Below are positions 52,010-64,000 of a stretch of 64,000 nt of DNA, in pieces. How positions within the stretch are numbered: position 1 is the first letter of the stretch; every line of letters begins with the position of its first letter. The notes under the pieces were generated by a model. It saw nothing but the letters and a program-made list of their open reading frames with translations. It made no database searches and was not told the DNA's origin. The translations under genes and the position numbers were made by a program. This stretch comes from Candidatus Deferrimicrobiaceae bacterium. Lineage in GTDB: Bacteria > Desulfobacterota > Deferrimicrobia > Deferrimicrobiales > Deferrimicrobiaceae. The stretch lies in the NCBI GenBank assembly GCA_963792415.1, contig CAWBVY010000006.1, positions 224,001 to 288,000 of the forward strand. The letters run 5' to 3'.

Positions 52010-52200
52010 CCATCCGCCGGAGGTGAAGATTCCGGCGCCAATCCTGCCGGCGACATCGATCGCCAGTGCCGCCGTCAATACAGGTTGTCCTGAAATTGAG
52101 GCGGGTATAATGACCCTGTACGACCGCATTCAACGCTTGACGCCGTTTCGTGAAATTCACCCGCAGGAACGGCGGGGTCCTCGAACCGGGAAAGGGGAAG

Positions 52201-53334
52201 ATGCCGAAGCACCTGGTATTCGTGGGCGGCGGCCACGCCCACCTCACGGCACTGATACGCCTGCGGGACACCGTGCGGTCCGGTCACCGCGTCACGTTGA
52301 TCGGCCCTTCCCCCTATCACTACTATTCGGGAATGGGCCCCGGCCTCCTCTCCGGAATCTACCGGCCCGCCGAGGCCCGCTTCCACGTGAAAAAGATGGC
52401 GCAGGACCGGGGGGCGACGTTCCTCGAGGACCGCGTGGTCCTGGTGGACCCCGTCCGGCGCACCCTGGTTCTCGGTTCGGGAGCCGAGGTCCGGTACGAT
52501 GCCGTCTCCTTCAACACGGGGAGCGGGGTCCCTTTGGATCTCCTCCATCCCTCCGGCGACAACATTTTTCCCGTCAAGCCGATCGAGAACCTCCTTGCCG
52601 CGCGAAGGAAGATACTGGAAGCAGCCGCCGGAAAGAGAATCCGCGCCGTCGTGGTGGGCGGAGGGCCCGCGGGCGTCGAAATCTCCGCAAACCTGGGGCA
52701 TCTCGGGAGGGAAACGGGCCGGATCGGGGGGATCACTCTCGTATCCCGGTCGCCCGTGCTGGGCGATTTCCCCGAGAAGGCGCGTGCACAGGTGCGAGGG
52801 GCCCTCGCCCGGTGGGGGGTCGTATCGATCGAGGGGGTTGCCGCGGAATCGGTCGCCAGCGGGATGGTGCGGTTGGAAAACGGCATGCGCCTCGAGGGGG
52901 ACATGGTGTTCGTCGCGGTCGGGATCCGTCCGTCCCCGCTCTTTCGGAATTCGGGCCTTCCCACGGGTGAGGACGGGGGGATGCTGGTCAACGATTGCCT
53001 GCAGTGCGTGGACCACCCGGAACTGTTCGGGGGCGGGGATTGCATCTCCCTGGCGGGGTCCCCGCTGGCGCGGGTCGGCGTCTATGCCGTGCGTCAGAAC
53101 CTCCCCCTCCACCGGAACCTGTCGGCGTTTCTCGAAGGGAGGCCCCTTCAACGATTCGATCCCGGGGGCGACTATCTCCTGATATTGAACCTGGGGGATC
53201 GCACGGGTCTTTTCCGGCGGAAAGGGATCGTCTGGAGCGGGCGGCTCGCCTTCCAGCTGAAGAACTACCTCGACACGAGATTCATGCGAAAATTCCAGGT
53301 GTCCGGAGAACTCCGCGAATCGCCCGGAGAGTGA
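52201..53334 (+). CDS. FAD-dependent pyridine nucleotide-disulfide oxidoreductase, resembling the domain found N-terminal to SelD
   Basis: VGGGHAH, YYSGMGPG, VGGGPAGVE, FGGGDC, GVYAVRQ, LKNYLDTRFM. Confidence 0.85.
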   Translation: MPKHLVFVGGGHAHLTALIRLRDTVRSGHRVTLIGPSPYHYYSGMGPGLLSGIYRPAEARFHVKKMAQDRGATFLEDRVVLVDPVRRTLVLGSGAEVRYDAVSFNTGSGVPLDLLHPSGDNIFPVKPIENLLAARRKILEAAAGKRIRAVVVGGGPAGVEISANLGHLGRETGRIGGITLVSRSPVLGDFPEKARAQVRGALARWGVVSIEGVAAESVASGMVRLENGMRLEGDMVFVAVGIRPSPLFRNSGLPTGEDGGMLVNDCLQCVDHPELFGGGDCISLAGSPLARVGVYAVRQNLPLHRNLSAFLEGRPLQRFDPGGDYLLILNLGDRTGLFRRKGIVWSGRLAFQLKNYLDTRFMRKFQVSGELRESPGE

Positions 53335-53361
53335 TCGAAACCGAAGGAAGGAGGGCTTGTC

Positions 53362-54183
53362 ATGGGATTCCTCGACTATTTCAAACCCGTTCCCACCTGG
53401 ACCGCCGAGGAGGTCCGCGCCTTCCTTCGGGAAAGGAGCGCCGAATCCTACAATCTGATCGACGTGCGACAGCCGGAGGAGTACGAGGGCGGGCATCTTC
53501 CGGGGGCCCGGCTCCTCCCGATGGCGGAGCTGAAGGATCGCCTCGGCGACCTCGACCGGTCCAAGCCGACCATCACCTATTGAAGGAGAGGGGTCCGCAG
53601 CCGTGCCGCTGCGGCAACGCTTTCGGAGGCCGGCTTCTCGCAGGTTCACAGCATGGAGGGGGGAATCGATGCCTGGAACGGCCTCGCGGCCGTGGGGGCG
53701 TATGAAGCAGGACTTGCGTACTTCTCCCGGGCGTCGCAGCCCGAAGAACTGATTTCGCTATCCTTCGCCCTCGAGGAGGGGAACCGCGTCTTCTACGAGC
53801 GCATTTCCATGGAACTGAAAGAGAAGGAAGCGGCCTCGATCTTCCGGTCGATGGGACAGGCGGAGGAACGGCACAAGGAGACCCTTCGGGAGCTTCACGC
53901 CCGGGTCACCGGGAAAGGCGCGAACCCCGCGCAACCGGAAGGGATGGAGGCTGGAGCATTTCTGGAGGGAGGGGCTCCGCTTCAAGAGACGCTCGATTGG
54001 GCCAAAGGCAAGACGCTGGAGGAGATCCTCGAACTCGCCATCGCGATGGAGTCGAACGCCCTGGACCGTTACATCAAGATGGGGAGGGCGGTCACGGACG
54101 AACGGTCAAGGGAGGTCTTCCTGGCGCTCTCCCGGGAAGAACAGAAGCACCTGGAGCGGATGACCTCCCTGCTGGACCGGTAG
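53362..54183 (+). CDS. rhodanese plus ferritin/rubrerythrin-like fusion, selenoprotein (Sec at the rhodanese active site)
   Basis: IDVRQPEEY..GHLPGA...ITY-TGA-RRGVRS..MEGGIDAW (TGA 53581-53583 in frame); EEGNRVFY, EERH, ESNALDRY, EEQKH. Confidence 0.88.
53595..53614 (+). promoter_or_regulatory. bacterial SECIS-like hairpin
   Basis: CCGCAGC-CGTGCC-GCTGCGG stem starting 11 nt after the UGA. Confidence 0.65.
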
Positions 54184-54241
54184 CGGGGCAAGGGGGAATC
54201 GTGCGAACTTCCCCCGGTTTCGCGGACAAAGTCGTCCGGAC

Positions 54242-54937
54242 TCAGCTTTCCTTCGCGAAATGCTCCTCCAGCGTGGAGCAGATCCGGTCCGGCTTCCGGT
54301 AGAACAACGAGAAACGAAGATCCACGGCCTGGGGAAACTGCGCATACAACAGGTGCGCCACCTCGTCGGGCCGCTTGATCGGCTCCCATCGGGCATTCGT
54401 CTTCGGACGAACGAACCGCCCGCTCAGCAGGAGCCGGAAGAACATCATGTCGCACAACATTCCCTCCAGCCATGGAGTCCAATTTTCGTACCCGGCGATC
54501 CACGTCGACTGCGCGCCACCGAGCAGCACCTCGGCCGTCCTCCTGTTGACGAAATCGCAGGCACCGAAGTAGAGCCCGTCGTAACTCGTGAGGGGCGCCA
54601 GTATGTTCTTGAGACGCCGGCGGCTGATGTCCTGCACCGCACTGATGACCCCCCGCTTTCCGTGGCAGGCGAAATAGGCGATCTTCCTGCGCTGGTCCAC
54701 CCCCTGGTCGTGCCGGTAGAGCGCGTCCTTCAATCCCTCCGCGTTCTGGAAGACGACATAACTGAACAACGCATCGTGTCCGGGCGTATCCTGGTGCACC
54801 CCGTTGCGCCGCAGGTACGTTTCGTTCGTGTCCCGCTTCAACTGCCCGAAAAAGGGCTTGACGGTTTCGTCGTGGAGATGGTCCCACTGCGCCTCGAATA
54901 CCTTGATGATGTACCGGACCCCGTTTCTCTCCCGCAT
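54242..54937 (-). CDS. hypothetical protein with caspase/CHAT-like His-Cys motifs (DUF6642-like)
   Basis: IAYFACHG and LYFGAC, WIAGY; GGAG RBS. Confidence 0.65.
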   Translation of the reverse strand: MRERNGVRYIIKVFEAQWDHLHDETVKPFFGQLKRDTNETYLRRNGVHQDTPGHDALFSYVVFQNAEGLKDALYRHDQGVDQRRKIAYFACHGKRGVISAVQDISRRRLKNILAPLTSYDGLYFGACDFVNRRTAEVLLGGAQSTWIAGYENWTPWLEGMLCDMMFFRLLLSGRFVRPKTNARWEPIKRPDEVAHLLYAQFPQAVDLRFSLFYRKPDRICSTLEEHFAKES

Positions 54938-55472
54938 GGCGAATCTCCAGGATCGACTGTCTGCAGATCCGTTTCCAGGAACGGAGGCGCCAAAATGTTC
55001 CCTGTCCCCGGAACCAATCGCGTTATCCCTTTGGATCGTTTCCCGTCGGGCAATCATTATACCCCACTGGCGGCGTACATATACATGTAGTTGATTATAA
55101 AGAGAAATATTGAATAAACCGAACGGGGGACGGAAGGGACCCTTCTCCGGCCCATCTGTATCCAGGCTAACTTTTTGTTATCGTTCATTTAATTGGATAA
55201 CGGGCATTTCATTGGGGGTGGGCTGTGGATTTATCTTCAATTATATCAACATTTTACAAATAGCGCTCCGCTCCTCGACCTTCCCCGTGGGGACGTTTTC
55301 GGCGCATGTATGATAATCGGCGGGCGGTTCTCCGCCCTGCTGCAATCCGCCCGACTGCCGGAACTCAGGCGAATGCTTTTTCTCGCGGGCATGAGTCTAC
55401 GGTTTGCTCGTCGGTGTCCTATCGAAGTCCCGGTTGAGAACCTCACGTCCCCTTCTCACGGTCCATCCCCTT

Positions 55473-55868
55473 CTACCCCTTGTCCCAAGGGTTCAGCCGC
55501 AGCCGCCCTCCCGGAAGCCGCCCCTCGTGTGCGACCCAGACCCACCCGATCCCGTAAGAGACCGAGAAGGGTCCGAGGAGCGCAAGGAGCCACTTCCCGT
55601 TTCGCACGCCGAGGATGATCAGCGCGAGTCCGGCGCAAATGCAGATCGCGGCGATCAGGGTGGCCAGGAAGCGACTGGTAAAGGAGAGGTTCGGGAGGTG
55701 GCTCTCGATCGGCCGGGCCTTCACCCGTTCGCTCCGGGCGGGACGGGCCCGCTCCGCTTGGAACAGTCGACCCGGCAGTTTCATGCGGCCGGAGGTTTTC
55801 GGTTTGATGACGATGAAACGGAGGTCGTCTTTCTTTTTCCTCGACCTGTCTCCGCGTTTCGGGGCCAT
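55473..55868 (-). CDS. hypothetical membrane protein (2 TM)
   Basis: Basic N-terminus followed by two hydrophobic helices. Confidence 0.55.
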   Translation of the reverse strand: MAPKRGDRSRKKKDDLRFIVIKPKTSGRMKLPGRLFQAERARPARSERVKARPIESHLPNLSFTSRFLATLIAAICICAGLALIILGVRNGKWLLALLGPFSVSYGIGWVWVAHEGRLPGGRLRLNPWDKG

Positions 55869-55979
55869 GGGTTGATCAAAACCATCTCATAAGATTTCCC
55901 GCGAGTCAAATTCGAGGTGGCAAAGGAAGGCTTTTACGTCCGGAGCAGCCCCAGCGTCTCCCCCGCGCACTCCGATGGA

Positions 55980-56174
55980 TTAGAACTCGACGAGGAAACC
56001 TCCGAACTGGACCTGGATCTTCTCGTCCGGCGACAACTTGAACCGATGCACCGCGAGTTTCAACAATCCCGCGATGTTGTTTCCGCGGTCCGTTCTCCTC
56101 CGCTCCACGAGCGTCCCCACCTTCACCTTCCTCTCAAGGGCCTTGTCGACACTGAATACGGTGAAGGTCGTCAT
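55980..56174 (-). CDS. small hypothetical protein, paralog of 40696-40917
   Basis: MTTFTVFSVD..KVGTLVERRRTDRGNNIAGLLKLA; GAGGGGG RBS. Confidence 0.75.
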   Translation of the reverse strand: MTTFTVFSVDKALERKVKVGTLVERRRTDRGNNIAGLLKLAVHRFKLSPDEKIQVQFGGFLVEF

Positions 56175-56175
56175 C

Positions 56176-56394
56176 TCATCCCCCCTCATCCGGAGTGGTA
56201 TCTCTTCCCAGCGAAACGCACCGGGGACCGAGAAGGATCCTGTCCCCAGGTTCCTGTTCGAAAAGTACCATCGCCTGTTTCAAGATGTGCGGAGTGATCC
56301 GGGTACTCCACTGTTGGCACGATTCCAACAGGGAGCCGATCCGCGAGAACGACCCGTTGGATCGGCAAAGCCGATATACGGGATAGAAGTTCAT
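56176..56394 (-). CDS. small hypothetical protein, divergent member of the same family
   Basis: MNFYPVYRL..SRIGSLLE..ILKQAMVLF..GDRILLG; directly downstream of a sigma54 site. Confidence 0.6.
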   Translation of the reverse strand: MNFYPVYRLCRSNGSFSRIGSLLESCQQWSTRITPHILKQAMVLFEQEPGDRILLGPRCVSLGRDTTPDEGG

Positions 56395-56406
56395 GCCTGC
56401 TAGTAA

Positions 56407-56423
56407 TGCAACGGAAATGCCAA
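56407..56423 (-). promoter_or_regulatory. sigma54 -24/-12 promoter
   Basis: TTGGCATTTCCGTTGCA on the minus strand, AT-rich tract upstream. Confidence 0.7.
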
Positions 56424-56721
56424 GGAAGCGCAGAAGAATACTTGATTAATATCATAAACTTGTGGCTTGTGTTCCCAGGCGTTGGCGGTACGGGTGGCGA
56501 ATATTTTTCCTTAATTGCGATCCGTCCCCGCATCCATGAAGGAAAAGATTTTCCACCAAAGAATACGTGGCCACGGCCGGAGAGCAGGACAGACAACGAT
56601 CCGCGTTTCGGACAGAAACCGATTCCGCAGGCTGGCGGGGAGGATTCCCCTGGGAGGAAACAGGGAATGCGCGATACAATGAAAAGCAAGCGACCACAAC
56701 AACGTCCGGGGTCAGGAAATC

Positions 56722-57615
56722 ATGTTTACGATCAAAGGCCCGGTTCTTGCCGCGATGGATCTTGATGAAGGATCCGATGAACTTCTTCGTCAGGCGGACG
56801 CCCTTGCGCGTTCCTACAAGGTCAAACTTTCCGTCTGCCATGTCCTCCCCGAAATCTTTGCCGTGCGGCCCTTGTTTCCTCAACTGCATCTTGACGACGC
56901 CCTGAATCGCTCCGGGCTCGAGGCTTCGGTTCGCGATGCTCTTCTGGAGCGCATTCGTGCGGTGACAACTCGAAAGTTATCCCAAACAGAGATCGAGATC
57001 GAACAGGGCACGGTGCATGCGGGGATCCTCCGTGCTGCCGAACGCATCGGAGCGGGAGCCGTGGTCGTCGGGGGAAAAGTCGATCCAAAAGGGCTGCACA
57101 TTCTTGGCAACGCTGCGGAGCATGTCGTTCGGTATGCGGATTGTCCCGTCCTTGTGGCGCGGCCCTCGCCCGCGGGAAAGGTACTGGTGGCGACCGACTT
57201 TTCCGATCCCGCACTTCCCGCCGTTGAAGCGGGCGCCGCCGAGGCACGGCGCCGGAAGGCCGACCTGACGATCCTTCATGCCATCGATCTGCTCCCGGTG
57301 ATCCGTCCTTACTACGGAGAGTCCTTTGACATGCCTCCGATGGAACTCAGCGACCGGATGAGAATGATCTGGCAGACAAGGCTTGATGAGTGCGTGCGTC
57401 GCTTCAAGGCCAAGGGCGGTGGCCTGCTTCGCGATGGACCGGCGGCGCCGGCGATTTTGAGCGCGGCGTCGGAACTGCCGGCGCAACTGCTCGTCGTAAG
57501 CACTCACGGCAGGACGGGGTTCCGCCGCGTTGCCCTGGGCAACGTGGCGGAAGCCGTTGTGCGCGCCGCGCCATGCTCCGTTCTAACCATTCGATTATTC
57601 CAGGAACGCGCATGA
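56722..57615 (+). CDS. universal stress protein (two USP domains)
   Basis: VLAAMDL..LGNAAEHVVRYADCPVLV; VLVATDFS..LGNVAEAVVRAAPCSVL. Confidence 0.92.
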   Translation: MFTIKGPVLAAMDLDEGSDELLRQADALARSYKVKLSVCHVLPEIFAVRPLFPQLHLDDALNRSGLEASVRDALLERIRAVTTRKLSQTEIEIEQGTVHAGILRAAERIGAGAVVVGGKVDPKGLHILGNAAEHVVRYADCPVLVARPSPAGKVLVATDFSDPALPAVEAGAAEARRRKADLTILHAIDLLPVIRPYYGESFDMPPMELSDRMRMIWQTRLDECVRRFKAKGGGLLRDGPAAPAILSAASELPAQLLVVSTHGRTGFRRVALGNVAEAVVRAAPCSVLTIRLFQERA

Positions 57616-58360: not shown

Positions 58361-58547
58361 CGCCCCCTCCGAGTAGCGCTTCCTTTCTTTTACCCCATGG
58401 ACAGAGATCGGGAAAGAGAAAACCCCGGGGCGAGGGTGCTACCGGCAGGGGGAGACCCGCGGACCGGAGCCGCATTGTAATAATGCCGGTTGTGCGGGGT
58501 TTATGCCCGAATCCGTTTTCATTCCATTCCGCGTCACCGTGTTTATC

Positions 58548-59024
58548 TCACTTTTTCTCGTCCCGCCTCTCCTGAGCTTTCAAGACGTGGCACATCTCGG
58601 TGCAGCCCGTCAGGTTCTTCACACCACTGCCCACGTCATTTTTATGGCATTTGAAGCAGGCCTGGTGGTAGGCGTCCTTGAGTCCCCGACGGGCGATGCT
58701 CCCCGGTCGTTCGGACGCCGGGTGACACTCCCCGCAGGACTTCAGCTTGCCGACGTTCAGGTTCTTTTTGAAAACGGAAGGGTCGATCGGATGGCATTCC
58801 GCACAGGCGTTAACCTGAATCGAGCCGTGCTGATGGTGGCAGTCTGCGCATCCGCCCGCCGTGGAAACATGCTCCGAATGGTTGAACCGCACCGGTTCGT
58901 AGATCCTGGACAGGCTCCCCAGAACGAGGTCCTTCGGAACCTTCCCCACAGCGGCCGTTTCGCTTGAGGCCGAGACGCCGATACAGAGGGCAATGGCAAC
59001 CAGTAGGATCGTCGCTTTCTTCAC
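58548..59024 (-). CDS. periplasmic class III (c3-like) multiheme cytochrome c, 5 heme motifs
   Basis: Signal peptide after GTG 59024 (AAGGAG RBS); PVRFNHSEH, CADCHH, CAECH, CGECH, AYHQACFKCH, CTEMCH. Confidence 0.88.
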   Translation of the reverse strand: MKKATILLVAIALCIGVSASSETAAVGKVPKDLVLGSLSRIYEPVRFNHSEHVSTAGGCADCHHQHGSIQVNACAECHPIDPSVFKKNLNVGKLKSCGECHPASERPGSIARRGLKDAYHQACFKCHKNDVGSGVKNLTGCTEMCHVLKAQERRDEKK

Positions 59025-59044
59025 GGTTCCGGTCTCCTTCCGCG

Positions 59045-59737
59045 TTATTCTCCGTCCGTCAGCAGGTGCGTCTTCGCCAGTTCGACCCATTCGGCGCCGC
59101 CCAGTACCCGCGCGATCCCCTCCACCGGGAGACCGCCGTCCTGGAGGACCGGGCCGATGGTTTCGCCGTGGAGCGGATGGAGCTTGTCGAGCGCGTTTTC
59201 CATCCAGGCCCTGGCCAGCTTCCCCGAGAGAAGGTTCCGGGTGTTCGACGCGACCTTGGACGATTTCACCTTCAACAGCCACCCCTTGCCGTACGGATCC
59301 TGGCGCAGGATCTCGGGGGACCGGAGAACCTCGTCGTTCACCTCGACCACCTCGCCGGCGACCGGCGACAGCATCGGGATCCGGTCGGAATCGACCACGA
59401 GGCTCCACCCCTTCTCCCCCTGCGCCAGCCGGGACCCCACGGCGGGCAGCTCGACGGCGTCCACCTTCCCGACGAGCTTCCGGGCGAAGTCGTCCAGCCC
59501 GACGACGCCGATGGAGCCCGGCTCCGGCCGGAGCCAGCCGTGCCCCTGGTGGTAGAAGAGCCCCTCGGGGATCCGGAACCGGGTCACGCTCTCCGGGGCG
59601 ATCCTCGCGCCCGCCGGCGCCTCGCGCGGCTGGTACATGTAGCGGCAGAAGAGCACGAAGACCGCGAGGAACGAGATGACGATCAGGTACTCGATCCCCT
59701 TCGTGGCGTAGATGTCTATGAAGCTGATGCCTTCCAT
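59045..59737 (-). CDS. membrane-anchored glycine-cleavage-H-like protein lacking the lipoyl Lys
   Basis: N-terminal TM; FYHQGHGW, VGLDDFA, SPVAGEVVEVN, DPYGKGWL; VVDSDR in place of ESVK. Confidence 0.85.
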   Translation of the reverse strand: MEGISFIDIYATKGIEYLIVISFLAVFVLFCRYMYQPREAPAGARIAPESVTRFRIPEGLFYHQGHGWLRPEPGSIGVVGLDDFARKLVGKVDAVELPAVGSRLAQGEKGWSLVVDSDRIPMLSPVAGEVVEVNDEVLRSPEILRQDPYGKGWLLKVKSSKVASNTRNLLSGKLARAWMENALDKLHPLHGETIGPVLQDGGLPVEGIARVLGGAEWVELAKTHLLTDGE

Positions 59738-59810
59738 GTTCCCACCTCCGCGTCTTCCCGATATATTTCCTCTACGACCTCATGCGAGATGCCGACCACG
59801 GACATCCGCG

Positions 59811-60485
59811 TCAGCGGAAATACTTCCGGATCGCGATCTGGAGAATCTCTCCGTCCATGCTCTCCATGATTCCCTCGACGTGAATCCCTCCATCCTGCAG
59901 GGTGGCCCCCACTTCCACGGGCACCGCCCGGTGCAGGGAGAGGAACTCGGTGAAGCTCTTCGCCTCCCTTTCCAGCCACGCCGCGGCCTCCGCGCCGATC
60001 CGGAGCTTCTTCAGGTCCCGGGAGAGGTTGGACGGCCGGAGCAGGAACGCCCACCCCTTCCCGTACGGCTCCTTCCGCGCCTCCGCCGGGTCGGCGTTGA
60101 TCCCCTCGTTCACCGCGCAGACGACGCCGTCGACGGGGGAGACGAACTCGATCCGTTTCCCCGACTGGAGGGCGGCGAACGCCGGCTCCCCCTGGCGCAG
60201 CGTCGCCCCGTCCGGGGGAAGCTCGAACCGGTCGACCTTCCCCAGGATCCCCTGCGCGAAGCCGTCCAGCCCCACCTGCACCGCGCCCGAGGCATCGAGC
60301 CTCGCCCAGGTGTGGCCGCTGTGGACGAACAGGCCGCCGGGCAGTTCCTGCGCCGTCAGGGAAGGGAGCAGCGCGGCCGGCTCACGGACGGCAAGGGCTT
60401 CCGCCGCCGCCTTCTCCCTCCGCTTGAGGGCCAGGTCCACCGCGATACATCCGAGAACCGTGAGTACGACGAGAAGGACTACCAT
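59811..60485 (-). CDS. membrane-anchored glycine-cleavage-H-like protein
   Basis: N-terminal TM; HSGHTW, VGLDGFA, SPVDGVVCAVN, EPYGKGW; QSGKR with the Lys one residue off register. Confidence 0.85.
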   Translation of the reverse strand: MVVLLVVLTVLGCIAVDLALKRREKAAAEALAVREPAALLPSLTAQELPGGLFVHSGHTWARLDASGAVQVGLDGFAQGILGKVDRFELPPDGATLRQGEPAFAALQSGKRIEFVSPVDGVVCAVNEGINADPAEARKEPYGKGWAFLLRPSNLSRDLKKLRIGAEAAAWLEREAKSFTEFLSLHRAVPVEVGATLQDGGIHVEGIMESMDGEILQIAIRKYFR

Positions 60486-60501
60486 GGCCCACCTCCTGCT
60501 C

Positions 60502-61212
60502 TTACCCCAGAAATTGGCTGACGATCTTTCCCCATTGCGCGTCGTTCAACCGGCCGCTGATGTCCGTGAGCGCCTCCCCGCCGTCCGTCGCCGTCATCCC
60601 CAGGTCGGAAGAGAAGACCCGCTGCAGCCGTTCGACCTCGCTCTCGTACCACTTCCGGGCGACCGTCTCGTGGTACAGCCCCTTCACCGCGTCCCCTTTG
60701 AGCTGCAGGGAGAAGATCCACCCTTCGCCGTACGGATCGTCGTTGAGCAGGGAGGGATCCGCGGCCACCTTCGGGTTCACCGCCTTGACGACCCCGTTGG
60801 CGGGCGAAACCAGGTGGGCGGTCCGAGGACCGGAGTGGAGGAGGAAGCAGACGTGGTTCTCCTTCACCGCCACGCCGACCGCGGGCACCGACGCACGGTC
60901 GACCCTGCCGACCAGCCGGGCGGAAAAGTCGTCGATCCCCACCCGGGCCTCGCCCTCTTCCCCGTCGTGCGGGGCGACCCACAGGTGCTTGGGGTGGTAG
61001 TAGTACCCCGACTTCAGGTGAAATCCCCGGACATTCTCCATCCCCTTGCCGGCGCCGGCCACCTCGTTGTACAGGGAGCATTCCTCGAAGTGGCAGGTGG
61101 TGCAGAGGCTCTCCGAGGTGTACAGCCGGTCCACCGGGATCATCTTCGACGGGAACGCCTTGCAGAACGTCACGGTTTTCGTCTCCAGAAAAGGGCATCT
61201 CGTCTCTTTCAT
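60502..61212 (-). CDS. glycine-cleavage-H-like protein with Cys-rich N-terminal domain, no lipoyl Lys
   Basis: CPFL..C..CTTCHFEEC; YHPKHLW, VGIDDFS, SPANGVVKAVN, DPYGEGW. Confidence 0.85.
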   Translation of the reverse strand: MKETRCPFLETKTVTFCKAFPSKMIPVDRLYTSESLCTTCHFEECSLYNEVAGAGKGMENVRGFHLKSGYYYHPKHLWVAPHDGEEGEARVGIDDFSARLVGRVDRASVPAVGVAVKENHVCFLLHSGPRTAHLVSPANGVVKAVNPKVAADPSLLNDDPYGEGWIFSLQLKGDAVKGLYHETVARKWYESEVERLQRVFSSDLGMTATDGGEALTDISGRLNDAQWGKIVSQFLG

Positions 61213-61270
61213 CTGCGCACCCCTTTTCCTTTCGGTGGTCCGGTTCACCCGCTCGACTCCCGGGAACGTT

Positions 61271-61351
61271 TCATGCGTGGTCCGCCCGCGGTTTCACCAC
61301 CGCGACGACCGCCAGAACGATGTACGCGATTCCGATCACCAGGTACCCCAT
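61271..61351 (-). CDS. putative 26-aa single-TM peptide MGYLVIGIAYIVLAVVAVVKPRADHA
   Basis: AAGGAGGT Shine-Dalgarno 7 nt before the ATG; first ORF after the sigma54 site. Confidence 0.6.
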   Translation of the reverse strand: MGYLVIGIAYIVLAVVAVVKPRADHA

Positions 61352-61398
61352 CGTTCCCACCTCCTTCCGCGGGGACGACCTCCCGCGCCTATGTAGAG

Positions 61399-61414
61399 AG
61401 CATCAGCCATGCCA
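61399..61414 (-). promoter_or_regulatory. sigma54 -24/-12 promoter of the GcvH-like/cytochrome operon
   Basis: TGGCATGGCTGATGCT on the minus strand. Confidence 0.6.
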
Positions 61415-61754
61415 TCCTCGGCCCGAACCCCGCAGAGATCAGTAACCTTCTGTTCGTTAAGGGAAACCAGAACCAAGGACCAACCATTTCCGGGAAGGAT
61501 GAAAAACCGGATTCTGTGTGTATTCTCTACGCTTCCAGGAGGGATTACCTAAGTATTCAATTTCTTTCACATTAAAATGTTGTGAATTTCAACAGTACGT
61601 TGAGATTTTCATCACTCCATTTGATCGCCCTTCTGCCCGGTTGACTCCCTGGTACCCCGGCACCCGCCTCTGCTATGGATTTCCACGCTCCAGTCGGGAA
61701 CCCATACGGTCCCTGTTTGAATTTTCCGCACATCCCCCTTGCAGGGTATTTATA

Positions 61755-61782
61755 TTGTATACAGTATACAAAGAACTATAAT
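61755..61782 (+). promoter_or_regulatory. palindromic operator (GntR-like) overlapping a sigma70 promoter
   Basis: TTGTATAC-A-GTATACAA (61755-61771); TTGTAT-N16-TATAAT. Confidence 0.6.
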
Positions 61783-61848
61783 TCCACTGACGGACAGGAT
61801 TTCCGCCGACAGGGTCGTGTTACGCCGACACCACGGGAGGAAAGAGAG

Positions 61849-62766
61849 ATGACCATCAGCAGACGGAACTTCCTGAAGGCCGCGGGTGCGGCCGGCGGCG
61901 CCCTTCTCGGGGGGGGCGCCGCGTCGGCCCGCGCCGCGCAGGTCCCGCAGACCTCGGCGGGGGGCGTCGAGTTCGACGGGATGCTCATCGACACGACGAA
62001 GTGCATCGGCTGCCGCGCCTGCGAGGAGGCGTGCAACGAGGCGAACCATCTCCCCAAGCCGAAGGTCTCCTTCTCCACCGAGAGCGTGTTCGAGGAGACG
62101 CGGGACACGACCACCGGCGCCTTCACGGTCGTGAACCGGTTCCCAAACGAGAAGAAGCCGCAGGAGCCGATCTTCGTCCGGAAGGAGTGCATGCACTGCA
62201 ACCAGCCGGCGTGCGCCTCCGCGTGCCTGTGCCGGGCGATGGAGAAGACCAGGGAAGCCGCGGTCATCTACCACAAGGACCGGTGCATGGGGTGCCGCTA
62301 CTGCATGATCGCCTGCCCCTTCGACATCCCGAAGTTCGAGTACGACAGCCCCACGCCTTACGTGTGGAAGTGCATCTTCTGCAACGAGCGGCAGATGCGG
62401 GGGGAGCCGCCCGCCTGCTCCGAGGTGTGCCCCACCGGCGCGACCCTCTTCGGGAAGAAGCGCGACCTGCTGGAGATCGCCCGGAGCCGGATCTACACGG
62501 AGCCGGACAAGTACGTCCACAGGATCTACGGGGAGCACGAGGTCGGCGGGACCGGATGGCTCTTCCTGACGGGCGCTCCGCCGGAGAAGCTGGGCCTGCG
62601 GACCAACCTGGGGACGACCCCCTACCCCGAGCTCACCTCCGGGTTCCTGTACGGGGTGCCCCTGGTGTTCGTGCTCTGGCCGTCGCTCCTCATCGGGCTG
62701 AACTACCTCATCAAGGATACCAAGGTCGACGAAACGAAGGAGGCCTCCCATGGCGAACAGGACTGA
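61849..62766 (+). CDS. Tat-exported 4x[4Fe-4S] ferredoxin subunit, HybA/HmcB/NrfC family
   Basis: SRRNFLK Tat motif; CIGCRACEEAC, CMHCNQPACASAC, CMGCRYCMIACPF, CIFC..PACSEVCPTGA; C-terminal TM. Confidence 0.9.
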   Translation: MTISRRNFLKAAGAAGGALLGGGAASARAAQVPQTSAGGVEFDGMLIDTTKCIGCRACEEACNEANHLPKPKVSFSTESVFEETRDTTTGAFTVVNRFPNEKKPQEPIFVRKECMHCNQPACASACLCRAMEKTREAAVIYHKDRCMGCRYCMIACPFDIPKFEYDSPTPYVWKCIFCNERQMRGEPPACSEVCPTGATLFGKKRDLLEIARSRIYTEPDKYVHRIYGEHEVGGTGWLFLTGAPPEKLGLRTNLGTTPYPELTSGFLYGVPLVFVLWPSLLIGLNYLIKDTKVDETKEASHGEQD

Positions 62767-64000
62767 CGCGGCGCCCGCGAGCGCCGAAGGCACCGTGACC
62801 TTCCGGGAGGTGGCTCGGGAAACGATCCGGTTCGTCCTGAGCGAATTCAAACCGAAAGGGAAGATGCTGACGCCGTTCAACGTCATCACCGGGGCGATCA
62901 TCCTCTCCGGCCTCGTGATGATCGCCATCCGGTTCGCCTACGGCCTGGGCGCCGTCTCCAACCTCTCCCAGAACTACCCGTGGGGGATCTGGATCGGCTT
63001 CGACGTGGTCACCGGCGTGGCCTTCGCCGGAGGCGCCTACGTCCTGACCTTCGTCGTCCACATCCTGAAGGTGAAGAAGTACGAGCCGATCGTCCGCGTG
63101 ACCGTCCTCAACGGATTCCTCGCCTACGTCTTCTACGCCGGCGCGCTCCTGCTCGACCTGGGGCGCCCCTGGAACGTCATCAACCCCATCATCGGGAACT
63201 CCTTCGGGTTGAGCTCCGTCCTCTTCCTGGTCGCCTGGCACTTCCTCCTCTACATGATCTGCGAGTTCCTGGAGTTCTCCCCGGTCGTCGCGCAGTGGCT
63301 GAACTGGCCGAGGGCGCGCAGGATCCTGGAAGGGCTCACCACCGGCGCCGTCATCTTCGGGATCACCCTCTCGACGCTCCACCAGTCGGGCCTGGGGGCG
63401 CTCTTCCTCCTGGCCCCCTCGAAGATCCACCCGTTGTGGTACTCGGGGAACATCCCGGTGATGTTCTTCGTCTCCAGCGTCTTCGCGGGCCTTTCCATGG
63501 TCATGATCGAGAGCTTCTTCACGCAGAAGGCCTTCAAGGACCGGATCGGGCACGAGCTCCACGCGGCCCACGACAGCATCCTCCTCGGGCTGGGGAAGGG
63601 AGCCGTCGGCGCCCTCTTCGCCTACATCTTCCTCAAGCTCGTCGACTTCGTGCACTACAAGCAGTGGGTCTACCTCGACACCCCGATGGGGTACTGGTAC
63701 CTGTTCGAGATCGTCGGGTTCGTCCTCCTGCCGACCGCCCTCTTCCTCCAGGCGATCCGGCAGCGCAACCCGAAGCTCGTCCAGTTCACCGCGTTCCTCA
63801 CGGCGATCGGGGTGATCCTGAACCGGCTCAACGTCTCCGTCATCGCGTTCAAGTGGTACGAGGCCGTCCGGTACTACCCCTCCTTCATGGAGATCTGGGT
63901 GACGCTGGCGATCATCAGCATGGAGCTCTGGGTCTTCCGGTGGGTGATCAACCGGATGCCCGTGTTCGGAGAGGCGCATGAGGTGGTGGAGGAAAAAACC
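62750..64000 (+). CDS. NrfD/PsrC-family membrane subunit (HybB/HmcC-like), runs off window end
   Basis: Manual translation from ATG 62750 (AGGAGG RBS): NLSQNYPWGIWIGFDVVTGVAFAGG, LLDLGRPWN, LSTLHQSGLG, LNRLNV; not in the ORF track. Confidence 0.9.
   Translation, partial: MANRTDAAPASAEGTVTFREVARETIRFVLSEFKPKGKMLTPFNVITGAIILSGLVMIAIRFAYGLGAVSNLSQNYPWGIWIGFDVVTGVAFAGGAYVLTFVVHILKVKKYEPIVRVTVLNGFLAYVFYAGALLLDLGRPWNVINPIIGNSFGLSSVLFLVAWHFLLYMICEFLEFSPVVAQWLNWPRARRILEGLTTGAVIFGITLSTLHQSGLGALFLLAPSKIHPLWYSGNIPVMFFVSSVFAGLSMVMIESFFTQKAFKDRIGHELHAAHDSILLGLGKGAVGALFAYIFLKLVDFVHYKQWVYLDTPMGYWYLFEIVGFVLLPTALFLQAIRQRNPKLVQFTAFLTAIGVILNRLNVSVIAFKWYEAVRYYPSFMEIWVTLAIISMELWVFRWVINRMPVFGEAHEVVEEKT

Follow-up and report, generated by a model that had tools for sequence, protein, structure and literature searches.

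What could three proteins built on the fold of the glycine cleavage H protein (GcvH), each lacking the lysine that carries lipoate, be doing beside a membrane redox module? The question is raised by a locus at the end of a 64,000-nucleotide stretch of DNA (the window) from Candidatus Deferrimicrobiaceae bacterium, contig CAWBVY010000006.1, positions 224,001 to 288,000. The three proteins, here called H1, H2 and H3, are encoded in one operon with a small peptide and a c-type cytochrome, and this operon is divergent from a gene pair for an HmcB-like iron-sulfur protein and an HmcC-like membrane subunit of the NrfD family. An earlier note, made from the sequence only, had proposed that the H-protein fold serves here as a cytoplasmic adaptor or sensor of an Hmc-like complex. 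The answer favoured here, about equally likely to be right or wrong, assigns H2 and H3, along with H1 and the peptide, to the cytoplasmic side of a quinone:cytochrome c module under sigma-54 control, as membrane-tethered parts that have no catalytic function. The observations behind it are the fold, the loss of the lysine, the topology, the gene linkage and the conservation of the promoter.

Seven genes were checked in the window, and all are present where the earlier note had placed them:

58548..58985, minus strand: c3-type cytochrome of 145 amino acids (aa) with a signal peptide (Pfam Cytochrome_C7 and Paired_CXXCH_1)
59045..59737, minus strand: H3, 230 aa, an N-terminal transmembrane (TM) helix and a GcvH fold without the lipoyl lysine (Pfam, NCBIfam, AlphaFold2 (AF2) and Foldseek), followed by a tail, a C-terminal helical extension with QDGG
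59811..60485, minus strand: H2, 224 aa, an N-terminal TM helix, a GcvH fold and a QDGG tail (Pfam, NCBIfam)
60502..61212, minus strand: H1, 236 aa, soluble, an N-terminal 4-Cys domain and a GcvH fold without the lysine, with a TDGG tail
61271..61351, minus strand: hydrophobic single-helix peptide of 26 aa, MGYLVIGIAYIVLAVVAVVKPRADHA, with an ATG start and the ribosome-binding site GGAGGTG
61849..62766, plus strand: HmcB/HybA-like periplasmic protein with the twin-arginine translocation (Tat) signal RRNFLK, 16 Cys and a C-terminal TM helix
62750..64045, plus strand: HmcC/HybB-like membrane subunit of the NrfD family, 431 aa, running 45 nt beyond the window

The minus-strand genes lie head to tail in the order peptide, H1, H2, H3, cytochrome, with gaps of 16-73 nt. 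HmcB and HmcC form a pair on the opposite strand, and their frames overlap by 17 nt. When the sequence beyond position 64000 is read, as the earlier note had suggested, HmcC stops at 64045 and nothing Hmc-like follows it. The next genes encode a Sel1-repeat protein, an aminotransferase, MsrB and topoisomerase I, and the module is therefore limited to two genes, HmcB and HmcC.

The fold of the three paralogs is clear. All of them match Pfam GCV_H at 67.6-76.4 bits (cut-off 22.2), and all miss the GcvH equivalog TIGR00527 (58.7, 58.9 and 79.1 bits against a cut-off of 115.85). H3 shares 39% identity with H2 and 32% with H1. An AF2 model of H3 (pLDDT 89.6) has a helix spanning residues 7-34 ahead of the H-protein core, and three more helices in the C-terminal part (172-224). 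In Foldseek the core superimposes on the solved H-proteins 1onl, 3a8i and 3ab9 over about 126 residues, with target-normalised TM-scores of 0.90-0.93 and a root-mean-square deviation (rmsd) of 1.4-1.7; the values for 1onl are 0.90 and 1.6. The C-terminal extension is covered by no solved chain in this search.

The lipoyl lysine is missing from all three proteins. At the position of this lysine, the eighth residue before a conserved proline, H1 has P, H2 has G and H3 has S. H2 does have a lysine, seven residues before the proline and thus one place off register (SGKRIEFVSP), and H1 and H3 have an arginine nearby. A HMMER alignment to 1onl (Thermus) and 3a8i (E. coli) instead sets an arginine opposite the lipoyl lysine and makes the hairpin two residues shorter. 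The two alignments place the hairpin differently, and under either there is no lysine in register. The same holds across the family. In an alignment of 143 rows, made up of those 138 among 150 listed representatives that measure 150-320 aa, together with H1, H2, H3 and both of the other GcvH-like proteins of the genome, none of the 141 family rows has a lysine in the lipoyl column, and the sole lysine there belongs to the true GcvH of the genome. These comparisons support the view that H1, H2 and H3 could not be canonical lipoyl carriers. The earlier note had seen no gcvP or gcvT in the window; neither was found in the genome, which is rated 100% complete and was searched except for 72,000 bases.

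Might a swinging-arm or redox cofactor still be attached to the H-fold proteins at another residue, such as the neighbouring Lys or Arg, in the manner of LbpA? The residue after the old lysine column is basic in 83 of 142 rows (K in 44, R in 39), and the genome has lipA and an LplA/LipB-type gene, both on contig C1, its single BPL-family match being BirA. A distant relative (P0168, 1391 aa) also joins three GCV_H domains to a FAD-linked oxidase, a 4Fe-4S dicluster and two CCG (HdrD-like) domains. These points have to be set against the empty lipoyl column of the whole family, the arginine that takes the neighbouring place in H1 and H3, and a hairpin shorter than the canonical one. A lysine displaced by a single position is not known to become lipoylated in classical lipoyl domains, and neither hdr-like nor lipoate-ligase genes were seen in the 18 neighbourhoods scanned or at the two loci of this genome. 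A relocated cofactor is therefore highly improbable.

The family has a signature of its own. An alignment of 61 sequences shows N-terminal K13, E16 and Y17, an HxGHxW motif, and D200, G201, G202, G207 and W217; the DGG tail of the three paralogs is present in at least 90% of these sequences, and no cysteine is near-invariant among them. H1 differs from H2 and H3 in having no membrane helix. The cysteines of its N-terminal domain (C6, C17, C37 and C45) are invariant or nearly so in 15 rows, and in two loci (L018, L040) the domain is encoded as a separate small gene ahead of HmcB. An AF2 model of H1 from the 15-row alignment was too low in confidence for use (pLDDT 37.7), and a search of the ESM Atlas with the 4-Cys part gave no usable match. 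A word-index search for free-standing 4-Cys proteins found seven matches, all 66-82% identical to H1, which stop within or just past the conserved N-terminal part; several of them appear truncated or frameshifted. The claims of the earlier note that the paralogs lack the lipoyl lysine, that they share a C-terminal DGG motif and that two of the three are membrane-anchored at the N-terminus all hold. That the H proteins are decayed pseudogenes was considered and rejected, given their open frames, hundreds of conserved relatives and a confident model.

The genome contains eight GCV_H matches in total: the window trio, a second trio on contig C4, one GcvH with the lysine on C4 and one without it on C10. 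The only lysine-bearing GcvH (ESQK; C4:657984-658343, L002) is present in the genome although gcvP and gcvT were not found. It is flanked by a large open reading frame (ORF) resembling methylenetetrahydrofolate reductase/homocysteine methyltransferase and by a large multihaem cytochrome gene, both named by eye with no family search. The protein on C10 (C10:53453-53806; L003:1441-2322, minus strand) is free-standing and soluble, has Thr at the place of the lipoyl lysine (VESTTTVFELRSP) and is encoded next to a gene that reads like FolD, likewise named by eye with no family search.

On which side of the membrane do the H domains lie? Two relatives (P0130, P0149) begin with a signal peptide and a tetrahaem cytochrome, to which the conserved ATKGxEYL motif, the TM helix and the H domain are joined directly. 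Since c-type cytochromes mature outside the cytoplasm, these fusions put the N-terminus of the H proteins in the periplasm and leave the H domain on the cytoplasmic side. The distribution of charges flanking the helices of H2 and H3 is consistent with this arrangement, and a cytoplasmic placement of the H domains is thus supported. Other fusions place the H domain before a c7-type cytochrome (P0178), in tandem with another H domain (P0121, L041), or behind a response-regulator receiver domain of which it is the only output (P0142, L053, L055). The receiver fusion of L053 is encoded about 4 kb from a cluster of HmcB, HmcC and multihaem genes.

The divergent pair resembles known quinone-linked modules. 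At the superfamily level it is of the NrfC/NrfD type, with matches to Fer4_11 and other Fer4 families, to TAT_signal and to NrfD (48.1 bits, cut-off 25.8). Its best NCBIfam matches are HmcB and HmcC, followed by HybA and HybB, and every one falls below the curated cut-off: the window HmcB reaches 354.2 bits for HmcB (NF045715, cut-off 420) and 234.2 for HybA (263), and the window HmcC 389.8 for HmcC (NF045714, cut-off 550) and 241 for HybB (450). The 16 cysteines of HmcB form four-cluster ferredoxin motifs and are invariant in the HmcB alignment (A4). No solved relative of HmcC was found by sequence search. The cytochrome, which starts with GTG behind the ribosome-binding site GGAAGGAGA, has four CXXCH motifs and one CX3CH, and the latter is kept in the window gene and in three orthologues (L093, L096, L097). 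Among solved structures it comes closest to the C-terminal domains of 16-haem HmcA and 9-haem NhcA.

Is the proximity of the two gene sets more than a local accident? Relatives of H3 are numerous: a word-index search returned 916, nearly all named 'glycine cleavage system H protein' at source, and an exhaustive search of 50%-identity representatives gave 164 clusters at E<=1e-30 and 2208 at E<=1e-10. A genome scan, with a 12-row alignment as the query because the 61-row alignment is too diverse, kept 80 loci; the best 45 (L011-L055) were taken as the family, and the other 35, whose similarity is confined to the H core, were set aside. In 21 of the 45 loci the H gene has HmcB and/or HmcC as an immediate neighbour, and in another 8 they are found within 8 kb of it. 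At least five phyla are represented among the 21 linked loci, which belong to Deferrimicrobiaceae-like bacteria, Syntrophales, Acidobacteriota, Planctomycetota, Gemmatimonadota and Anaeromyxobacter. Relatives were also met in metagenome-assembled genomes of Syntrophobacteraceae and Desulfococcaceae. This neighbourhood census, a check that the earlier note had put forward, supports a linkage of the H genes to an NrfC/NrfD-type pair that is not obligate. The cytochrome is found in four of the seven H1-H2-H3-type loci examined, where its gene follows either H3 or HmcC.

A second locus in the same genome shows how the parts have been rearranged. On contig C4 the order is H1-H2-HmcB-HmcC-H3, all on one strand, with overlaps of 17 nt between HmcB and HmcC and of 22 nt between HmcC and H3; no cytochrome gene follows this operon. 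The blastn identity between the C4 and window loci is 99.9% over peptide-H1-H2, 99.2% over HmcB-HmcC and 94.5% over H3. The junction of HmcC and H3 at C4:121196-121298 aligns twice to the window (blastn), at 63953-64055 and at the following remnant:

59706..59808, no strand assigned: remnant of about 100 nt of the HmcC 3' end/H3 junction, which precedes and enters the start of the window H3 (blastn)

The double alignment indicates that the window order has descended from a C4-like order, H2-HmcB-HmcC-H3. The H family occurs in 21 of 24 other genomes of the genus, several of which have two or three loci in both gene orders. The spacing between H2 and H3 in the genus is either about 2.2-2.3 kb, which leaves room for HmcB-HmcC, or about 55-120 nt, and several genomes have both. 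An assembly artefact was considered as the origin of the second locus and rejected, as both gene orders coexist in several genomes of the genus.

The operon appears to be transcribed from a promoter of the sigma-54 type:

61400..61414, minus strand: -24/-12 element TGGCAT-N5-ATGC, TGGCATGGCTGATGC, conserved in five of five loci
61589..61603, minus strand: palindrome TCAAC-N5-GTTGA, about 175 nt upstream of the -24 element

Sites of this kind are not enriched within the window (33 matches against 40.2 expected), and the assignment relies for that reason on conservation in relatives only. In five aligned upstream regions (window, C4, L011, L012 and L013), the GG and GC elements occupy identical alignment columns throughout while the surrounding sequence diverges, and the ribosome-binding site and the 26-aa peptide are kept likewise. 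This supports a sigma-54 promoter. The palindrome is partly conserved in the five regions and is the sole match of the combined pattern in the genome; it may serve as the enhancer site for a sigma-54 activator. With the element in register in all five loci, the four CXXCH and one CX3CH motifs, and the natural fusions of a cytochrome c, a TM helix and an H domain, the earlier note was also right about a sigma-54 operon, a five-haem cytochrome and a cytoplasmic H fold.

A candidate activator is encoded near the relatives. Pfam matches to 81 neighbouring proteins from 18 loci include a HAMP-HisKA sensor kinase and a sigma-54 response regulator (13 loci each) and an M54 peptidase (10 loci). Each of the 13 kinases has at least one CXXCH, and two (L024, L026) match Pfam Mcp40H-20_sensor. 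In the window genome this kinase/regulator system is encoded only at the sister locus. There, 6 kb upstream of the C4 operon and separated from it by a TRAP transporter and a malonyl-CoA decarboxylase gene, lie a sensor kinase with CXXCH in its N-terminal part, an M54 (archaemetzincin-type) peptidase and an NtrC-type sigma-54 response regulator. The sensor part of this kinase (C4:108890-110697, equal to L092:3890-5697) has no Pfam match. Compared with a 612-aa orthologue in L011 the gene is frameshifted near C4:109825, tblastn running in frame 2 and then in frame 1, and it is thus either a pseudogene or an assembly error.

From these elements the following arrangement can be proposed. The periplasmic four-cluster iron-sulfur protein and the haem-less NrfD-type membrane protein would form a quinone-interacting module, a relative of HmcB/HmcC, NhcB/NhcC and HybA/HybB, which would exchange electrons with the small periplasmic c3-type cytochrome. 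H2 and H3 would each be tethered at the cytoplasmic face by one N-terminal membrane helix. Soluble H1 would add a putative metal-binding 4-Cys domain on the same side, and the 26-residue membrane peptide would complete the set. Because the lipoyl lysine is lost and no cysteine is conserved, the H fold would be a protein-binding scaffold or adaptor and not a cofactor carrier. Transcription from the sigma-54 promoter would likely be driven by the NtrC-type regulator of the haem-c sensor kinase system. We infer that the parts assemble physically and that the H proteins affect the module. A complex prediction of HmcC, mature HmcB and H3 from their own alignments gave a score of 0.01 against a mark of 0.32, which speaks neither for nor against binding. 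Of the adaptor or sensor first proposed for this locus, the cytoplasmic side and the gene linkage have stood, and the binding and the sensor role are still proposals.

A number of observations weigh against this arrangement. No HmcB or HmcC was seen in the DNA examined at 16 of the 45 loci, several of them on short contigs. H1-H2-H3 occur without the companions in L013 and L098, so the linkage is not obligate. In L046 the H genes lie with kinase, regulator and peptidase but not with HmcB/HmcC, and in L045 the same set stands beside a large iron-sulfur flavoprotein instead of the pair. In Terriglobales (L036-L039) a single orphan H gene follows genes of the size of 2-oxoacid:ferredoxin oxidoreductase, the Pfam identity coming from L037 only. 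Five genomes whose H locus lacked HmcB/HmcC were tested. Four have an HmcC-like gene elsewhere (348-488 bits), which adjoins another H gene in one and lies 4 kb from one in a second; in two of the five the H and HmcC-like genes are on different contigs or far apart, and one has no HmcC-like gene at E<=1e-10. The Tat signal is absent from 6 of 17 HmcB homologues, all of the Acidobacteriota type (L024, L025, L026, L020, L035, L049), so the iron-sulfur protein may face the cytoplasm there and the architecture is possibly not uniform. NrfD-type subunits are not known to carry a cofactor across the membrane, and a redox role of the cytoplasmic 4-Cys domain therefore lacks an explanation. Finally, the regulation is uncertain, given that the window locus has no two-component genes of its own and that the C4 kinase is frameshifted in the present assembly. 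As a separate observation, L025 has a gene for a thiamine pyrophosphate (TPP) enzyme resembling 2-oxoacid oxidoreductase immediately before its H gene.

Some of these exceptions would be expected if the adjacency reflected co-regulation only, with the H proteins serving an unrelated membrane function and HmcB/HmcC and the cytochrome working without them. The orphan genes of Terriglobales and the genome that has an H gene but no HmcC-like match fit such a situation, as does the window pair itself, which lies on the opposite strand with promoter-like elements of its own. It does not sit well with the overlapping frames seen elsewhere, between HmcC and H3 in L010 (the C4 locus), L011 and L014 and between H3 and HmcB in L019. 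Adjacency also persists across at least five phyla despite a shuffled gene order, and the natural fusions link the membrane helix of H proteins to a periplasmic cytochrome. Mere co-regulation is therefore very unlikely.

The main alternative, though a rather unlikely one, is that the H-fold proteins are signalling adaptors, through which the kinase, the sigma-54 regulator or the M54 peptidase would learn the state of the module or of a periplasmic cytochrome. In a variant of this explanation they pass phosphorylation back to the module. L045 and L046, where the H family keeps company with kinase, regulator and peptidase even without HmcB/HmcC, speak for this explanation, and receiver fusions with the H domain as sole output also agree with it. 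The cytochrome c-TM-H fusions resemble one-piece transmembrane redox sensors, and the M54 peptidase is located inside the regulatory operon. Yet most linked loci couple the H genes translationally to HmcB/HmcC and not to the regulators, and up to three H paralogs per operon are beyond the needs of a relay.

It is tempting to speculate that the H fold is a transmembrane coupling device, although this is decidedly unlikely. The conserved periplasmic N-terminal motif, or a fused tetrahaem domain, would read the redox state of the cytochrome/iron-sulfur side, and the H domain, at the cytoplasmic face of the NrfD subunit, would either gate quinone/proton chemistry or signal to the sigma-54 two-component system and the M54 peptidase. 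Phosphorylation would drive the same plug in the receiver fusions. If true, this would be an undescribed layer of post-translational control on NrfD-type complexes.

Public RNA data suggest, though weakly, that the genes of the locus are expressed. Six estuary metatranscriptome runs contain 21-33% of the sampled words of the window stretch, and contigs of four of these runs lie on H1, H2, H3, HmcB and HmcC, for which DNA carry-over is a possible source. In three of the four runs a single contig joins the end of HmcC to the start of H3, which is the C4-type order; in the window these genes are on opposite strands. The spacer at 61392-61950 is almost bare of contigs, and most of the cytochrome is uncovered in two runs. 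Such contigs show neither strand, level nor a single transcript, and uncovered parts are not evidence of silence.

Two further elements accompany the window locus:

58422..58437, minus strand: terminator-like hairpin and T-run about 110 nt past the cytochrome stop, a possible operon end
61756..61782, plus strand: palindrome TGTATACAGTATACA with a TATAAT after it, 67 nt ahead of the HmcB start

Terminator-like sites are as frequent in the region as expected (4 seen against 4.2), which makes a weak basis for the hairpin. The second element may provide the inverted HmcB-HmcC pair with an operator and a sigma-70 -10 box. The pattern TGTATAC-N-GTATACA has 13 matches at 12 sites of the genome with up to two mismatches, where about 1.3 are expected from base composition. 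The sites include C4:109063, upstream of the kinase of the cassette, and C6:290227; the genes downstream of further sites include those for aconitase, citrate synthase, ribonucleotide reductase and a CbcL-like multihaem/cytochrome b fusion as well as two Usp genes. The palindrome looks like the operator of an unknown global regulator of energy metabolism. Stress-type genes surround the locus (window 52150-57615; L001:4690-5352), namely a rubrerythrin-like gene, a pyridine nucleotide-disulphide oxidoreductase and a tandem Usp. The MsrB encoded beyond the window is exported, and Sel1-repeat genes are found on both flanks.

The gene set of H-fold proteins, HmcB-HmcC, cytochrome and sigma-54 control seems to be widespread and undescribed. 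A full-text literature search found no published description of GcvH-like proteins without the lysine together with NrfC/NrfD modules; as far as the accessible text goes, PMC8242959 deals with an ordinary gcvH mutant and not with such paralogs, and PMC9386147 mentions only iron-sulfur/NrfD/multihaem clusters.

In many anaerobic respirations electrons enter or leave the quinone pool through NrfC/NrfD-type modules, and the cassette offers concrete candidate partners for their cytoplasmic side and their regulation. In several phyla it brings together an NrfD-type module, H-fold proteins free of lipoate and a 4-Cys domain, and adds to them a metallopeptidase and a haem-sensing sigma-54 system. The window genome, with two loci in different gene orders and in one of them a remnant of the other, shows parts that have been reshuffled yet have stayed together. 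For metabolic models based on metagenomes, scoring these H genes as glycine cleavage or lipoate metabolism would be wrong.

How does the system compare with those already known? H3 has the fold of the solved H-proteins, and the paralogs retain the GcvH motifs HxW, GxDDFA, SP and DPYGxGW. They differ from GcvH in the lost lysine, the shorter hairpin and an extra His (HxxHxW), as well as in the N-terminal TM helix or 4-Cys domain and the 50-residue C-terminal helical extension with its invariant DGG. The setting is also different, in a genome without gcvP/gcvT matches and with paralogs under the TIGR00527 cut-off. LbpA proteins, the lipoate-binding proteins of sulfur-oxidising Hdr-like systems, differ from the H family in that the latter has no lysine in the lipoyl column. 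On the regulatory side, the kinases of the cassette resemble the haem-c sensors of Geobacter (Mcp40H-20_sensor) in having CXXCH in the periplasmic part, although only 2 of the 13 reach the threshold of that family.

A further comparison is with the transmembrane redox complexes of Desulfovibrio, Hmc (HmcABCDEF) and Nhc (NhcABCD). As in these, there is a periplasmic cytochrome, an iron-sulfur protein and an NrfD-type subunit, and no catalytic subunit. The cytochrome, by contrast, has 5 haem motifs instead of 16 or 9 and scores 41 bits against an HmcA cut-off of 400, and neither HmcE (cytochrome b) nor HmcF (HdrD-like CCG) was seen in the ORF lists or Pfam scans of either locus. H-fold proteins without the lysine, a 4-Cys domain and a micro-peptide take the cytoplasmic side instead, and control is by sigma-54 and a two-component system. 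The description 'Hmc-like' in the earlier note thus fits the B, C and cytochrome parts, and fails for HmcE/HmcF and for the equivalog cut-offs. In E. coli hydrogenase-2, HybA resembles the window HmcB in its Tat signal and its TM helix at the C-terminus, and its partner HybB is of the NrfD type and haem-less; here, the H-fold partners are additional, the HybA and HybB cut-offs are missed and neither locus has genes for hydrogenase subunits. Taken together, the missed equivalog cut-offs and the lack of HmcE/HmcF and hydrogenase genes describe a quinone module of the Hmc/Nhc/Hyb type that is a member of none of them.

A lipoyl-type (barrel-sandwich-hybrid) fold without the lysine in a membrane redox complex has a precedent in the N-termini of RnfC and NqrA, and weak Pfam cross-matches to NQRA_N and RnfC_N, at or below the gathering scores, occur in L053, L055 and P0168. 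The domain in RnfC and NqrA belongs to a large soluble subunit, whereas H2 and H3 are stand-alone proteins, each tethered by a transmembrane helix.

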